Part shown: positions 3,513-21,914 of the stretch, piece after piece
Numbering within the stretch: position 1 is the stretch's first letter
Layout: every line of letters begins with the position of its first letter
From: Octopus sinensis
Taxonomy: Eukaryota
Assembly: GCF_006345805.1 (NCBI RefSeq)
Contig: NC_043001.1
Coordinates: 25,110,001-25,174,000, forward strand
Reading direction: 5' to 3'
Length of the DNA stretch: 64,000 nucleotides
Translations under genes and position numbers: made by a program
Notes under the pieces: model-generated
The model's input: only the letters and a program-made list of their open reading frames with translations
What the model was told of the DNA's origin: nothing
Databases searched by the model: none

Positions 3513-3695
3513 GGATCTTTTCGGTTTGAACGGCAGTTTTTTCTAGTGGTATCATATGAAATTGTCACCCATAATTATGACCCTAGTATCGATCCATTGC
3601 ATTTCAATCTGTTTTAGGGTTAGGGTTGGCTAGGGGTGGGGGAAGGGTATCTTTTTTCCTTCAGAAATGTAAATAAACCCAATCTGTTTCTTAAC
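3513..3695 (-). mobile_element. Merlin-like MITE, copy 2 (right half only)
   Basis: Starts with TIR GGATCTTTTCGGTTTGAACGGCAGTTTTT and follows the reverse complement of copy 3, including TTAGGG repeats; truncated at ~3695. Confidence 0.8.
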
Positions 3696-5802: not shown

Positions 5803-6393
5803 TTATTATAAGATACACATTCCCCTCATCATCATCATCGCCGACAGTAATTTGGTACTTATGAAAGGAAAGTTTTATATTATTCAGAAAGTATTAAAAC
5901 AATGGCTAAGTAAACGTCTGAAAACAAGTATGAACGTTTAGGACAGACTTATGAAAATGCTTTCGGCAGGCAAATTGATTGTCTGTGCAATAGGGGGGAG
6001 TGAAAAAAGCAACTTTCGAAATTGGTAACCAAGAAACGATATTTTGTTGCGAATTAGGGTTAAAAGATAGGTGTATAAAGAACTTTGCGGTTTAATATTT
6101 TTTTAGGCTCCGCAATTAAAAATTTTTTTAAATCGCTATTTTTGGTTAAATTTTGGATTTCATGGATTATAAGTCGTAACGAATATATATTTCTAAATGG
6201 CAGAATGCAAAACGGTAAATATAGTATCCTTAAGAGGTTGCATACCAAGTTTCAATACAATTGAAAATCTTTAGATTTTGCATTGGCTATAAAGAGAACG
6301 GGAATCCCAGAAAAATGGTGCATTTTCGATGGCTTACAGCTGCAAATCGTATGCTACGGTTGTATGTTGCCACCGAGAATCCTAACACGATTA

Positions 6394-6793
6394 GGATCTT
6401 TTCGGTTTGAACGGCAGTTTTTATCATAATTTCTAGGTAACTAAAAAATTTAAAACTTCGTAGACTGGTAGATTGTGTTAATAAAACATGTTTTTCTCTT
6501 GGCTTTATTGCGAAAATTCTATAGTTTGTAAGATATTTGTTGTTTTTTCTTCAATTTCTGCAATTTCAACCAATCACTGACGTCCATTGAGTTAAACAAC
6601 ATTCTGTGCCGTATGAATATGTCCCTCGTTTAAGAAACAGATTTGGTTTATTTACATACCTTTCCCCCACCCCTAACCAATCCTAACCCTAAAATAGATT
6701 GAAATGCAATTGATCGATACTAGGGTCATAATTAAGGGTGACAATTTCATATGACACCGCTAGAAAAAACTGCCGTTCAAACCGAAAAGATCC
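6394..6793 (+). mobile_element. Merlin-like MITE, copy 3 (complete, 400 bp)
   Basis: 29-bp TIRs GGATCTTTTCGGTTTGAACGGCAGTTTTT / AAAAACTGCCGTTCAAACCGAAAAGATCC; perfect 8-bp TSD CACGATTA (6386-6393, 6794-6801). GG termini plus 8-bp TSD fit the Merlin superfamily. Confidence 0.85.
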
Positions 6794-6869
6794 CACGATT
6801 AAATTAATTGTTGCAACCGGTGTCCAATGTAGTTCACAATTAAATGCAACTCTTCCTCGGAAAAATGAG

Positions 6870-7825
6870 GCTCTAAATGTGTTCAAGACGATCTATGGGA
6901 GCCTACGTCAGCGCCGACGTATGTGATCTAATTGGATTATACATCCTGGACACCTTAGATGAGAAATTTCATTCGGTCCTCTTCAGTTTCTACAGGAATG
7001 ACACTCTAGCCCTCTCTAGAGGAGCCAACGGGCACATACCCGTTAGGCTTAGAAAGGACCTGATTAGCACCCTAGGCTTCATGGGACTCAAAATTGCTAT
7101 CGAGATAAATATCGCTACAGTAGACTTTCTAGATGTTATTCTAGACTTGGACTCCGGTACACACAGGCCCTATTGCAAGCCAAACGAGAGACTATCCTAT
7201 ATCAACACAGCCTCCTGCCCACCCCTTATCGTATTCAAGAACCTAGTGAAGGGTGTCAGCAAGAGGATCTCGAATTTATCCTCTAGTCAAGATATCTTCG
7301 ATACCGCTGACCTCTACTACAATGAGGCACTGACATCCAGCGGGTTTTAAGGACTGCATTTCCTATATGCCAGGTTCTAGCACTGACAAGAGGAAGCGCC
7401 GCCGAAACGTCGTTTGGTTTTCCCCACCATTCCCACTCAACGCCAAGACTTGTGTGCGAAGGATATTCCTCAGGTTAATCGACAAACACTTCACGCAGAC
7501 ACACAGGTACGGACGTTTATTCAACAGGTACAACCTAATGATCTCCTTATGTTGTGCACCCAACATGAAAAGTATATTAGCAAATACCCATAAAACACGG
7601 GAGGAGGCAGGATGCTCTTGCAGGGTGTACAATGACTGCCCAGTGGGAGACCAATGTGAAGCCGAGGGAGTCATCTATGGAGTTGTGGTCATACCCAGGC
7701 CTAGCGACCACAGTAATAGCAGTAACGGATCATCCAACGGCATCGGAGGCAGCGACAGCAGAAAAATACCACCACTGATGCCAACGACCCCAGTACCAGC
7801 ACTACGGCCGGAGAAGGTGAAAATG
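6870..7825 (+). mobile_element. Penelope-like element copy 1: RT C-terminal half, thumb, Cys linker, GIY-like motif and start of the S/N/T-rich loop (decayed)
   Basis: ORFs 6877-7350 (MGAYVSADVCDLIGLYIL, YRNDTL, DFLDVILDL, RPYCKPN) and 7367 onward (RRRNVVWFSPPF, LIDKHF, CSCRVYNDCPVGDQC, EGVIY) are typical PLE RT and linker motifs; homologous to 20570-21400(-). Confidence 0.85.
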
Positions 7826-7837
7826 GTTCAGGTTATT

Positions 7838-8270
7838 ATACCCTCAATTCTGGAGCCAGCGGTATTATCTGGGAAGATAGTGATGGGAAGAGACCTGATG
7901 CTCTTACCCTCTAATCTTGGGTGAGAGGTAGGTGCTTCATCTGGGACGCCACAGTCTGTGACTCTTTTTCTCCCTCCCACATCCTGGATGCTACGGTAAA
8001 TGGGAGGATCACTGCTTCCGTAGCCGAACAGAACAAAACCCTGAAGTATCGGGCCCTGTCAGTGAACTATCTCTTCCAGTCTGTGGCATTTGAGACGTTT
8101 GGAGGGGCTAGGCAGCTAACGGTGAATTTCTTGTCATCGTTGACAGCTCGCCTTACCGAGGTGTCAGGTGATGCCCGTGAGGGTGCCTAGCTATTCCAAC
8201 GCCTTAACCTCACCACCACCCGTGGTAATGCAGTGAGCGTATTGGCTTCCTTTAGTAGGTTCCGTTAAAC
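7838..8270 (+). mobile_element. CRE-clade-like restriction-like endonuclease (RLE) domain, decayed
   Basis: IPSILEP../DGKRPDALTL*SWVRGRCFIWDATVCD...AEQNKTLKY...FQSVAFETFG...SGDAREGA*LFQRLNLTTTRGNA matches the PD..D RLE C-terminus of CRE-type non-LTR elements. Confidence 0.8.
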
Positions 8271-8333
8271 TTTGTGGTATACAACATTGATGGGGTTTTT
8301 TTTTACCCTTTTTTTTTTTACTTTTGTAAAATA

Positions 8334-8775
8334 GGATCATTTCGGTTTGAACGGCAGTTTTTTCTAGCGGTGTCATATGAAATTGTCACCCATAATTATG
8401 ACCCTAGTATCGATCTATTGCATTTCAATCTGTTTTAGGGTTAGGATTAGTTAGGGTTAGCTAGGGTTAGGATTAGGGGTGGAGGGAAGGGTATCTTTTT
8501 TCTTCACAAATGTAAATAAACCCAATCTGTTTCTTAAACGAGGGACATACTCATACGGCACAGAATGTGTTCACCTCAATAGACGTCATTGATTGGTTGA
8601 AATTGCAGAAATTGAAGAAAAAAGACAACAAATATCTTACAAACTATAGAATTTTCTCAATAAAGCCAAGAGAAAAAGATGTTTTATAAACACATTCTAC
8701 CTTTATACGAAGTTTAAAAGTGTTTAGTTACGTGGAAATTATTTTTAAAAACTGCCGATCAAACCGAAAATATCC
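8334..8775 (-). mobile_element. Merlin-like MITE, copy 4 (both ends, expanded TTAGGG-like tract)
   Basis: Both TIRs present (slightly degenerate); reverse complement of copy 3; no clear TSD. Confidence 0.85.
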
Positions 8776-16938: not shown

Positions 16939-18899
16939 ATTCTCTCTCTCTCTCTCGCTCTCACTCTTGCTCCCTTCCTTTCACTACTTAAGTATGATGT
17001 TTCCATAAACAGTACTAACCAACTGCATGTCATCTCTCTTCCATCTCTCTCCTGTCTACCATTTCTATTCTGCTACTTTGCACTATCAGACATCCTCCAC
17101 TCCCCCACTCACACCAGGCACCTCTGACCCCTCTCATTCTTACCCACTTTGTACCTTGAAGGTCTACCACGACACCTCATCACCACTATTTTTATCATGT
17201 TCCAGATCCACCCAGTCATCCCCACCCTCTCTTCTAGAATGTGAGTAGTCATGTAGCTCTCTACAACAAGAACTGTTCTTCTCTGACCCCATCTCTCATA
17301 ATTTAACCCCTTATTTCCAAGCATTAAGTTTCCCTACCTCAGGGCTTGTAGTCTTGTAAGCAGCATGGCAACCTCAATAGTGCTGGTGGCACAAAAATAC
17401 ACACAATAAACAAAAGGATCTTCAGACGTTGGGCCTCACAGTGGGGATGACAGAGGACCAAGACTCCTGGTGGTTTCCTGTGCTTGAGAAGACACCCCAA
17501 GCTTAGTAAAATCGAAGCTGTCCTTGCATACAGGCATGTACCCTGCATACCCCTCCAGCTGAGTGTTCCCAATCTTGCAAGGCCATTAGAGTTGCTACCA
17601 TATAAAAAAACACTTGTACCATGTACCATGTAAATGCATCCATGCCAGTGCTGGAGCATTGTGAAATAAAGTGTCTTGCTCAAGAACACAACACGCTGTC
17701 AGAAATTAAACTCGCAACCTTACAATTGTGAGACGAATGTCCTAGCTATACAAAACCATGCAACCAATAAACATGTTGTGTCCAATTCAATTGCTTCTGC
17801 TCATCAAAGCTGGTTGGTTTCATGTCTCCCTTTATTTATGTACTCTTGACTCATTTGTCTCCTCTCCTCTCCTCTCATTACCTCTAAATGTGTCTACCCA
17901 CTTCAGGCCTCACACAAACTACTATGCCGAGTTTGTCCTGACCAGGACGTTGGCCCTCTGCTATTCATTTCCCAAATATGTTAGTCATACTCCTATCAAC
18001 TTGTAACTGTTTCTGAATAATATTAACAATATCAGTTTCTCAGTTTCAGAGGTCCTACAAATATCATAAGCACTGCCTCTTCCTCAAGAGCAAATATATA
18101 TGTGTGTGTGTGTCTCCTACACTCTTGGAGTGGTTTCTACACTCTCGGAGTGTTTGGCGTTAGGAGGGGTATCCAGCTGTAGAGACTCTGCCAAATCAAG
18201 ATTGGAGCCTGGTGCAGCCATCTGGTTCACCAGCCCACAGTCAAATCGTCCAACCCATGCTAGCATGGAAAGCGGACGTTAAACGATGATGATGATGATA
18301 CACACACACACACATGCAGTTAAATATGTCTGGTCATAGAGTGACGAATAGTTTCACATCCATAAAGCATTAAGTTTCATGGACAGCTTGTCAGACTCAA
18401 ATGGCAGATGGCTTATATCCCTCTTCAAAGAGGAGATAGAAAACCGTTATGGTCAGTAAATTTGTAAACAAATACTAAAATACCGTTTGAGGCTTGTCCA
18501 AGTTATCTCCCTTAGATTAGTTTGGATGCCAAATTTTATGGATTTAAATGGTGAAAGGGAAATCTCTTCCCATAAGCTGTTTCCATTTTGTGGGAACTTT
18601 TTCAGTTCTAATCGATGAATGAGGAATCCCACGCCTGTAGCAGGTAGCATCTGAAATGGGGGCATGGGCTTTAAATCTTGTTTCTAGAATTTAGTATGGA
18701 TGCTGAGTCTTTAAGGATCTTTGCTTGCTTTGTTATGCAAAACAAGCATAGTCCACTTCCATTTATGTAGGGCCCAGCTATTCAATGACCTTCCATTTAA
18801 TTTTGTACGAGGCTCCATTATCCTTGAGGCGCATGTATGGCTGGCCAGTGACATGACGTATCGTCCTTCCTGGACCCTGAAAGAGGATCTGTGGTCATA

Positions 18900-19134
18900 C
18901 ATATTTCTTTACTACCCACAAGGGGCTAAACACACAGAGGACAAACAAGGACAGACAAAGGGATTAAGTCGATTATATCAACCCCAGTGCGTAATTGGTA
19001 CTTATTTAATCGACCCCGAAAGGATGAAAGGCAAAGTCGACCTCAGTGCAATTTGAACTCAGAACGTAACGGCAGACGAAATACTGCTAAGCATTTCGTC
19101 CAGCGTGCTAATGTTTCTGCCAGCTCACCGCCTT
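18900..19134 (-). mobile_element. SINE family C inserted in the PLE GIY-YIG domain
   Basis: 13-bp TSD ATCTGTGGTCATA (18887-18899, 19135-19147). Confidence 0.9.
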
Positions 19135-19342
19135 ATCTGTGGTCATAGAGACGCCACTTAATGGTAGTTCTGGAAGACCCAATATATCTCCAAACTTGAG
19201 TGCTGGCTGTGTTCTCACTCCTTGTGTTGGTTCCAGGCCCAGGGTTGATGTTGCTGCCACTACAGTCACTGGAGCTGTCGTGCCATTATTACAGGTTGTA
19301 GTTGTCGTTGCGGTAGTCGGTCATAGTACTACTGCTGCTGCT

Positions 19343-19730
19343 GCTGCTGCTGCTGTTGCTGTTGAGCGAAGCGGTCTTCGTCCCAGAGCTTGCAAGATGG
19401 GAGAAGTCCGAATCGTGGTCCTTTGCTATTCATAAGACCCGCAGAAGACAAAGCAGGTCAACCCCCAACACCGAGAGCATCAACGGATAGATGAATGCGC
19501 ATCCAGGCTCAGAATTTGCATAGGAAGTAGAGGACAAGAAACAGGAAGAAAGAGTGAGAGGAAGTTGGGGCAAAAGAGTACAACAGGGGTCGCCACCACC
19601 CCGTGCCGGAGCCTTATGGAGCTTTAGGTGTTTTCACTCAATAAACACACACAACGCCCGGTCTAGGAATCGAAACCGCGATCCTCCGACCACGAGTCCG
19701 CTGCCCTAACCATTGGGCCATTGCGCCTCC
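19343..19730 (-). mobile_element. SINE family B, tail type 2 ending in (CAG/CAA)n
   Basis: Family B head; likely TSD ACTGCTGCTGCT (19331-19342, 19731-19742), ambiguous because it lies in a microsatellite. Confidence 0.8.
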
Positions 19731-19831
19731 ACTGCTGCTGCTACCACTGTAGCCAGTGGTTCTGTGATTACTGTCACTGTTAACAATGGGCATGGAATTG
19801 GCAGCCTCACTGGTGCTGCTGGTGTTGCTGT

Positions 19832-20335
19832 CTTCTTCTTCTTCTTCTTCTTCTTCTTCCAATCAGGTCTCACATCATTAGCCACAAAGAATAATTTCTA
19901 ATTCGAGCCTACTCAAAGCTACTAAGAATGCGTGTGGCAACTTGAAGATCCACCCACCACACGCGATAGACTGGAGGTTGCACGGGCACGAAATCTACAT
20001 TGTTATCCTCATTCCGTAAATGGTGGCTTTTAACAGGTGGAGAGCTGAACCATCCTGGGGTACAGAGGATTCACAATCTAGACTAGGGTCTGAAAGTTTA
20101 CCACACCATAGTGGGTTACACCATGTTCCTCTGCTTTGTGGCAGAAGTAGGCAGAAAGAGTGAGAGACAGTTGTGGTGAAAGAGTACAGCAGGGTTCACC
20201 ACCCTACCCTGCCGGAGCCTCGTGGACCTTAGGTGTTTTTGCTCAATAAACACTCAAAATGCCCGGTCTGGGAATCGAAACCGCGTTCTTACGACCGCGA
20301 TCCGCTGCCCTAACCACTGGGCCATTGCACCTCCA
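19832..20335 (-). mobile_element. SINE family B, tail type 3 ending in (GAA)n
   Basis: Family B head; 13-bp TSD CTGGTGTTGCTGT (19819-19831, 20336-20348). Confidence 0.85.
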
Positions 20336-21914
20336 CTGGTGTTGCTGTTGCTGATGGCATTGTGGCTGCTGTCACAGCTGACATTGGGCATGGGAGTGAT
20401 AGATTCGCTGGTGTTGCTGGTGTCATTATCTCCGGCTAAGGCACTAGTGCTGTTGGCTCTGTCGCTGCCATCGATGTTGGTGTTTCTGTCACTGCTATCA
20501 CCACCATCGATGTTGGATGAACTGCTGCTGCTATTACTCTGGTTACTAGGCCTCGATACCATCACAGCTTCAAACACAATTCCCTCAGCCTTGCATTGGC
20601 CCCATCCTCCAGCCCCACTTCACAGTCATTGTACTCCTTGCATAAGCAATCGACATCCCCCACATTTTATGGGTGTTAGCTAATAGTCTTTTCATATTGA
20701 GTGCACAACTAAAGGAGACCCTTAGGTTGTGACTATTAAACAAACATCCATACCTGTGTGTCTGTATGAAGTGCTTATCTACTAAGCTGAGGAAAAGTCT
20801 TCCCACACAGGTCTTGACATTGAGTGAGAAGGGTGGAGTAAACCAAGTGATGTTCCAGCGACACTTCTTTTTTGTGAGTGCTAGGGCCCTGCATATAGGA
20901 GATGCATCCTAAAATTCACTGGCCACGCGGGCTTCATTGTAATAGGGGTGGTAGCATGGAAAATTTCTTGATTCAAGGATAAGCTTGTGATCTGCTTGCT
21001 AACACCCTTCACTGGGTTCTTCAACATGATAGGCAGGTGGCAGGTGGCTGTGTTATGTAGGACAGCCTCTTATTTGGTTTATGGTAGAGCTTGTATGAAC
21101 TGGATCCCAAGTCTAGAGTGACATCTAGGAAGTCTCCGATAATGAGGTTAGTCTCAATGGTTATTTTGAGTCCCATAGAGCCTGGGACACTAATTAGATC
21201 TTTTCTAAGCCTATCATGGGTGTACCTGTTGGCTCCTCTGGAAATAGCCAGAGCATCATCTCTGCAGAGATTAAAGAGGACTAATGGAAACTTCTTCCCT
21301 AAGGTGTCCAGGATGTATAGGCCAATAAAGTCATAAATGTCAGCACTGTCATTGCTATGACAAAGGAACCCTTGGGGTTTGATTGCTTGACCCATGTTGA
21401 ATCTTTATTAAATAGCACCATTCTCCTGGCATGCATGATGATGTCTATGTCCCTATTGCTAATTTCAGTGAAGCTCCTAGCCAAGGAAAGTGCCTTGATC
21501 AGCAACTCATTCAGTATGGATGGGTAAAAGTCGAATATATCGAATTGTGTAAACCATGCTCTGCCCCTCTCCTGGTTCGTATTAAATCCCGAAATCATCT
21601 CATTGGTGATGTGCCATAATGAGAGGTTGGAGGCTTTCCTTATGTATGTATATATATATATATATATATAAAGATGGGAATGTGTGTCTGTCTGTCTGTC
21701 TGTGTGTCTGTGTGAATCCTTAAAACTTGAGAACTACACAACCAATTTCATTCAAATTTTACACATGCCTTACTTAGGGTTCGTGTAGTGTCATGGGCAA
21801 AAAAATTTTTAACTTCTTGCCTAGTGCGAGCCCACAGTGTGACTAAACCCAGAACCATATGGTTCAGAAGCAAGCTTCTTATCACACTGCCATACCTGCA
21901 CCTATAAATAAATG

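Follow-up and report, generated by a model that had tools for sequence, protein, structure and literature searches.

A Penelope-like reverse transcriptase and a restriction-like endonuclease found joined once in the Octopus sinensis genome: probably a dead junction of two unrelated retrotransposon fossils

Here we show that a Penelope-like reverse transcriptase (PLE RT) and a restriction-like endonuclease (RLE) which run together on one strand of Octopus sinensis DNA belong to two separate families, that their junction was found once, that the family reading frames are out of phase across it, and that right-hand sequence is missing. An earlier sequence-only reading of this DNA had described PLE RT, thumb, linker, EGVIY and the start of an S/N/T-rich loop running into RLE motifs; all of these are present where it placed them. 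The observation is confirmed, and the endonuclease swap suggested from it is not supported. The locus is probably one dead junction of two unrelated retrotransposon fossils, formed by insertion of a 5'-truncated LINE into the GIY-YIG spacer of a PLE together with a deletion of target sequence.

Endonuclease-bearing (EN+) PLEs use GIY-YIG nucleases (PMC8557442) and the RLE belongs to non-LTR clades (PMC4640811), in agreement with the background from which the earlier reading had started. A PLE RT working with an RLE, if true, would break the rule of GIY-YIG in EN+ PLEs and would offer a natural experiment on the interchangeability of RT and nuclease modules. That reading had recognised no such replacement among described PLE clades; likewise, no paper on a PLE with an RLE was listed by the literature searches, and a true swap would be new.

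The stretch of DNA analysed (the window) comprises 64,000 nt of the forward strand of O. sinensis contig NC_043001.1 (positions 25,110,001-25,174,000), and the genome searched was 2.72 Gb. Pfam gave no RT, GIY-YIG or RLE family above cut-off in the window frames, nine genomic ORFs, the intact PLE ORF L172 or two intact PLE relatives; because Pfam does not detect these domains here, fold comparisons took its place. The features of the locus, in window coordinates, are as follows.

6301..6892, + strand: fragment of repeat Y, a dispersed transposase-like repeat, split by MITE1 (20 other matches to 6824-6892)
6394..6793, no strand assigned: MITE1, ~400 bp; its terminal inverted repeats are short and its 8-bp target-site duplication is perfect
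6893..7350, + strand: 5'-truncated Penelope-like RT, last motifs and thumb (55% identity to the intact in-genome relative L172; RT tree)
7334..7680, + strand: PLE RT-EN linker with CxCX5C (7613-7639), a Hydra motif per PMC8557442, and GIY-like strand VIY (7670-7678)
7681..7820, + strand: first third of the S/T/N/D-rich GIY-YIG spacer, with a frameshift near 7765 (length comparison among copies)
7821..7825, + strand: PLE/LINE junction, 2-3 bases matching neither family, then TG common to both (found once; bridged by a contig of run X2)
7824..8268, + strand: 3' end of a CRE-like LINE ORF, with the core of the RLE (E, RPD, D) but neither CCHC knuckle nor RH motif (RLE profile, E 1.4e-24)
8269..8333, + strand: T-rich 3' UTR of the same LINE, interrupted by MITE2
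8334..8775, no strand assigned: MITE2, inverted relative to MITE1, no clear target-site duplication, unique DNA next
18600..21700 (approximate ends), - strand: copy 2 of the same PLE family, with RT, linker, GIY, interrupted spacer and YIG half (alignment to the window copy)

The junction occurs in a single place among everything that was searched. A 111-nt junction query gave eight genome matches, of which only the window crosses the junction and the other seven cover the PLE side only, and a degenerate junction pattern matched once in 2.72 Gb, at the window itself. No other junction-spanning place was present among the best 40 of 893 genome candidates scored with the DNA query 7560-8330, or among the best 40 of 1264 scored with the query 6890-8290. 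The several loci with a common junction which the sequence-only reading had proposed to look for are reduced, among the places scored in this genome, to the window. It is important to bear in mind that the copy lists of both families hold the best-scoring candidates only, and since the DNA searches are samples of large families, a rare decayed twin of this junction is not strictly excluded.

That the junction is a misjoin of two repeats made by the assembly is an explanation to which we give almost no weight. Repeats do lie on both sides, and X2 may be the assembly's source sample. The X2 contig nevertheless covers 7782-7966 without differences, with 42 letters left of the junction, and a contig from X4, which carries another organism label, covers 7798-7966 without differences, its 26 letters on the left being below the 31-letter rule. 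The depth of the X2 junction contig (5.6) compares with 4.0-5.8 in neighbouring contigs that have at most one difference from the window, and is that of single-copy sequence. Among the contigs listed for runs X6 and X7 none crosses the junction. For 7600-8330 no RNA data set was listed, a result that carries no information on expression. A joint from 7648 to 8299 seen in three runs was set aside as another repeat copy, its short side amounting to 21 letters only.

To the left of the junction lies an eroded PLE. RT motifs and thumb occupy the stop-to-stop frame 6877-7347 on the + strand, the catalytic YRDD has become YRND, a stop stands at 7348, and the frame changes near 7340 (break at ~7340-7350). 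The linker reads CSCRVYNDC at 7613-7639 and is followed by EGVIY with its Y at 7676. PLE homology spans 6893-7820, and the copy is truncated at both ends; the element start at 6870 given earlier has to be moved, as homology begins at 6893 and 6824-6892 is repeat Y. The other boundary had been placed well: homology to copy 2 had been put as far as ~7825, and the alignment of the two copies (72% identity over 930 columns) stops at 7825. The PLE part matched its family with E of about 1e-222 in the 6890-8290 genome DNA search. In an RT tree of 46 rows, where a single UniRef Octopus entry stands among relatives without names and from which 4 of 50 candidates were omitted for lack of length, the window RT clusters with an old PLE family of its own genome. 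The window RT piece shares 72% identity with a UniRef entry that carries the label Octopus bimaculoides. In P0001 (UniRef, Octopus bimaculoides, 'PH domain-containing protein') the first ~190 aa are the RT and thumb of this PLE and host domains follow, a fusion which is probably a gene-model artefact.

Other copies of this PLE match through 7820 and then continue into a common S/T/N/D-rich sequence. A further DNA search for PLE copies scored the best 40 of 263 candidates. GIY was reached in 42 of 74 distinct places; within the sequence examined the YIG half was present in 29 of these 42 and absent from 13. In copy 2 the YIG half reads WRYIGS near 19190 and is located behind further insertions. 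Several high-copy short elements interrupt the spacer and YIG half of copy 2 between 19100 and 20345, two of which we take, from their appearance, to be tRNA-derived SINEs. The spacer between GIY and YIG is long in this old family (median 429 nt, range 216-1058 nt in 29 places, at least 590 nt in 5 of the 29), and it runs uninterrupted in frame for 163 codons in L034 (1276-2355, +) and 155 codons in L039 (1065-2222, -), with 51-53% S/T/N/D.

To the right of the junction the + strand carries the LINE motifs IPSILEP, DGKRPD, WDAT, ETFG, QR and RGNA, interrupted by stops at 7912 and 8188. The RLE part matched its family with E 1e-119 in the 7560-8330 search, and all 39 other scored matches to that query begin at or after window position 7820. 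The family is large: a LINE protein query gave 141 genome matches, with 133 scored of 5599 first-look candidates. Genomic copies and homologues together indicate an architecture of one ORF with RT, CCHC knuckle, RH, E, RPD and D, of which the fragment in the window comprises just the final ~500 nt. The 29 LINE copies fetched form a sample drawn using the window fragment as query; 21 of them have 86-1477 nt of common upstream sequence, leading to the CCHC knuckle and, in the longest, to a non-LTR RT. Truncation near the window's point is routine for this LINE, as the other 8 of the 29 have at most 33 nt of common upstream sequence and are cut within about 35 nt of that point, none having PLE there, and copy L007 is truncated at the same base.

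The public relatives of this LINE have the same make-up. Among 8000 proteins scored 121 homologues were found, of which 120 were examined; the genome's own LINE RT piece was matched by 89 of the 120, and 112 have a CCHC-like motif before RPD. Homologue P0005 has an RVT_1 domain, and R2 is its best solved relative. A PHD finger stands at the N terminus of several intact homologues (P0005, P0012 and others), and a PF00443 domain occurs in some. The CRE label, taken over from the sequence-only reading, is a presumption based on the RT and RLE motifs. The family is spread over many contigs with no evident site specificity. In copy L136 the motif spacers are 1/9/3/8/19/10/15, against 1-3/7-8/3-4/9-10/19-33/9-21/12-14 published for SLACS/CRE (PMC12857005), with RHS for RHD/N; compared with the motif of SLACS, CRE1 and CRE2 described there, three spacers are thus off by one residue and RHS/T stands in place of RHD/N. 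Among molluscs, CRE types have been reported almost only from cephalopods in the available text of PMC10294476.

The two families do not mix away from the window. Cross-tests by blastn and tblastn found RLE in 0 of the 74 distinct PLE places and PLE sequence in 0 of the 38 distinct RLE places. Public proteins gave the same picture: RLE was present in 0 of the best 150 PLE relatives (of 7178 library proteins matched by a profile without EN) when these were searched with an RLE profile to which the RLE piece of the window itself scores E 1.4e-24, PLE RT in 0 of the 120 RLE relatives when these were tested against nine PLE queries, and a PLE-RT+RLE fusion protein in 0 of 4 longer relatives. These results bear on the headline of the sequence-only reading, a chimeric family in which RLE replaced the PLE GIY-YIG and the fusion was retrotransposed, now decayed and of low copy number. 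The junction is unique in the searches made, RLE elsewhere has its own upstream sequence, PLE was found with RLE at none of the other places tested, and that headline could not be upheld. As signs of two unrelated elements the same reading had named a unique junction, an RLE preceded elsewhere by its own LINE sequence and PLE copies that always continue to YIG; the junction was found once and none of the other RLE copies sampled is preceded by PLE, and YIG was seen in 29 of the 42 GIY-reaching places rather than in all.

One point in favour of a chimeric family is the reading frame, since IPSILEP is today in frame with the linker ORF 7367-7924, as had been stated. This holds literally, and it does not hold ancestrally. 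The 7740-7790 segment is 50 nt long in the window, its length in 17 of 20 other PLE copies being divisible by three, and the resulting frameshift near 7765 takes the ORF out of the family frame ~60 nt before the junction. At the junction itself the frames of the PLE and LINE families differ in phase by one base, and 25 of 27 LINE copies, read in the PLE-family phase, have a stop as the fourth codon after the junction, 7834-7836. A further 5-nt insertion lies in the window between ILEP and DGKRPD, where 7855 to 7895 spans 40 nt, compared with 35 nt in 24 LINE copies and 33 nt in 2, being absent from 26 of 26. Comparison of the copies indicates that the in-frame PLE-RLE run is not ancestral and is a product of the frameshift near 7765, and we predict that a PLE-RT+RLE protein was never encoded here.

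Endonuclease replacement does have a non-LTR precedent, from RLE to APE (PMC4640811), and genome searches that score the best candidates only could favour such a family by passing over its other members. Against it stand, besides the phase and the single junction at single-copy depth in X2, the lack of both CCHC knuckle and RH motif, the junction being downstream of both. In the R2 structure the CCHC zinc finger, next to the RLE, keeps the unzipped target strands apart (PMC10499050). Taken together, a decayed chimeric family appears very improbable. The same very small chance attaches to its most favourable form, in which the locus would be the last detectable copy of a short-lived lineage with a Hydra-type PLE RT and a captured RLE, the frameshift near 7765 having joined the frames and the other copies being too decayed to be scored. 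The alternative offered in the earlier reading, in which a truncated CRE element inserted, or a template was switched, on a single occasion and the 3' end of the PLE was lost, is supported.

The surroundings of the junction appear to record a series of nested events. Repeat Y stops exactly where the PLE starts (6892/6893), all 11 of 11 fetched repeat Y copies go on past 6892 with common sequence, and the fragment in the window is likely the host of the PLE insertion, on the comparison of these copies. Repeat Y (window 6301-6892; L177-L187) carries transposase-like coding remnants. Within 264 kb around the window we found neither the continuation of repeat Y, nor the LINE 5' part, nor, copy 2 aside, a PLE 3' half, and the earlier statement that the YIG half of copy 2 has no counterpart downstream of the window copy stands over this range. 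Neither behind the LINE tail nor behind MITE2 does the sequence preceding 6893 recur. Both MITEs belong to a very abundant family of ~400 bp with 8-bp duplications that we take to be hAT-like; further copies lie at 2-391 and 3513-3694 of the window and just downstream of the ORF end in LINE copies L010 and L023. Lack of a duplication at MITE2, which reaches 6 of 8 at a shifted register, was considered as proof of a later deletion, an argument weakened by the base rate: the duplication is present in 8 of 12 full-length MITE copies, and the 4 without it are MITE2 and 3 others.

The order of events that we favour would begin with a PLE, already 5'-truncated at 6893, inserting into repeat Y. LINE cDNA made by target-primed reverse transcription would then have halted ~500 nt from the LINE 3' end and been joined at 7821-7825, within the PLE spacer, via an overlap of 2 nt. 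A deletion, during the insertion event or afterwards, would have taken away the 3' half of the PLE together with the remainder of repeat Y, and MITE1 would have inserted into repeat Y and MITE2 into the LINE 3' UTR. Microhomology at 5' junctions (PMC3846280) and insertion-mediated deletions (PMC3543922) are both documented for LINEs, and the locus resembles such 5'-truncated insertions in its short 5' overlap, lack of a target-site duplication and neighbouring loss. In the published cases the pre-insertion site was known, whereas here we infer the deletion; as the insertion has left neither a target-site duplication nor a PLE 3' half as proof, the deletion must be assumed.

A plain DNA-level deletion, in which a single repair fused the PLE to a LINE lying downstream on the same strand, with loss of the 3' half of the former and the 5' part of the latter, is the less likely but still serious alternative, to which we assign something like one chance in a handful. 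Its attraction is economy, a single event accounting for the missing PLE 3' half, repeat Y continuation and LINE 5' part; the 2-nt overlap is compatible with end joining, LINE copies are as abundant as the 5599 first-look candidates suggest, and no age order between the halves is required. It does, however, require a same-strand LINE copy near the PLE, and the LINE's own 5' truncation already yields such fragments, as in the 8 of 29 copies of the sample drawn with the window fragment.

Less probable again, and in our view unlikely, is a one-off template switch in which the LINE RT passed from the 3' end of its own RNA to a PLE transcript and the hybrid cDNA inserted into repeat Y. Such a switch would yield what is seen, LINE 3' and PLE 5' on the same strand with both parts 5'-truncated, and would need no PLE 3' half. 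The continuation of repeat Y is missing regardless, however, so that a deletion would still be required; the sequence before 6893 does not return beyond the LINE tail or MITE2; and the spacer hosts other elements too (copy 2, L037), with spacers of at least 590 nt in 5 of 29 places.

Age was assessed in trees built from the places covering most of each region (35 of 74 PLE, 36 of 38 RLE). Each half nests in the radiation of its own family, with end branches of 0.09 (PLE) and 0.12 (LINE), and divergence from the column majority is 11.5% for the LINE, 9.4% for the PLE linker and 14.2% for the PLE RT. The families are similar in age, and both RNAs could have coexisted as a template switch would need; since the LINE half is not the younger of the two, age gives no order of events. 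Insertion of a truncated LINE with a deletion remains the reading we consider probable.

The endonuclease that is incomplete in the window copy can be read from its relatives. L172 (1288-3438, -) is an intact ORF of a young sister PLE family with a GIY-YIG spacer of 17 aa. This young Hydra-type family (L172, L173, L174, L175 and many others) is abundant; its copies are nearly identical, with frames open for ~700 aa, and some form inverted pairs. It may have been active recently. The model of L172 (pLDDT 93.6) had telomerase as its top Foldseek match (E 1.6e-9), with other RTs close behind. For its EN model Foldseek returned nothing under E 0.001, the top row being T4 EndoII at E 0.18; in a wide VIA search I-TevI was best (Z 8.8, rmsd 2.4, 90 aligned residues), followed by T4 EndoII and the UvrC GIY-YIG domain. 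A YIG-half profile matched 80 of the best 150 (of 7178) library PLE relatives. The fold of the L172 EN model and the 29 places of the window's family with both halves show a C-terminal GIY-YIG endonuclease as a feature of the PLE family, not of the window copy. At its gathering score Rfam gave no hammerhead ribozyme match in 9 loci, whose element ends are unmapped.

A CxCX5C linker, DKT for DKG, RWK, and CxxC/CxH without CCHH define the Hydra clade, whose hosts include Mollusca (PMC8557442); among the species sampled in the available text of a 2026 preprint (10.64898/2026.07.22.740005) Hydra was found only in a coral. The lack of GxKF/Y, a canonical hammerhead ribozyme and insertion into (TA)n are further characters of the clade. 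L172 has RWK at 46 and DKT at 123 and lacks GxK[FY]; CCHH is absent, no cysteine occurs between GIY and YIG, and CxxC precedes E and CxH follows N. Among alignment rows of the window's family, which include duplicated places, 4 of 7 show DKT and 1 of 4 shows RWK, the window copy being without the region; the CxxC/CxH motifs around E and N occur in this family in decayed form. The likeness to the clade as defined in PMC8557442 is made up of CxCX5C in the window copy and of DKT, RWK and CxxC/CxH without CCHH in L172, decayed in the window's family. The window's PLE family carries Hydra-clade motifs, and by these motifs it is Hydra-type.

The old family differs from its Hydra-type relatives in its spacer, with a median of 429 nt against 17 aa in L172. 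Among library relatives the spacer is 8-29 aa in 66 of 68, the remaining two having 61 and 76 aa; library proteins P0174 and P0239 have shorter T/N-rich inserts at the same position between GIY and YIG. Penelope ORFs of Adineta vaga have asparagine-rich in-frame inserts of 460-554 aa or 1.5 kb, which either lie between RT and EN or separate the RT core from the thumb (PMC3846280). The octopus insert is likewise a long low-complexity coding insert within a PLE ORF; unlike those of A. vaga, the insert of the old octopus family (130-160 codons, and 155-163 in the two open copies) sits inside the GIY-YIG motif.

The locus itself is ordinary nested mobile-element decay, common in repeat-rich genomes, and not a new hybrid family. 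Of modest interest is that the genome holds two or more Hydra-type PLE families, a young one whose ORFs are intact and an older one in which a long low-complexity insert lies inside the GIY-YIG motif.
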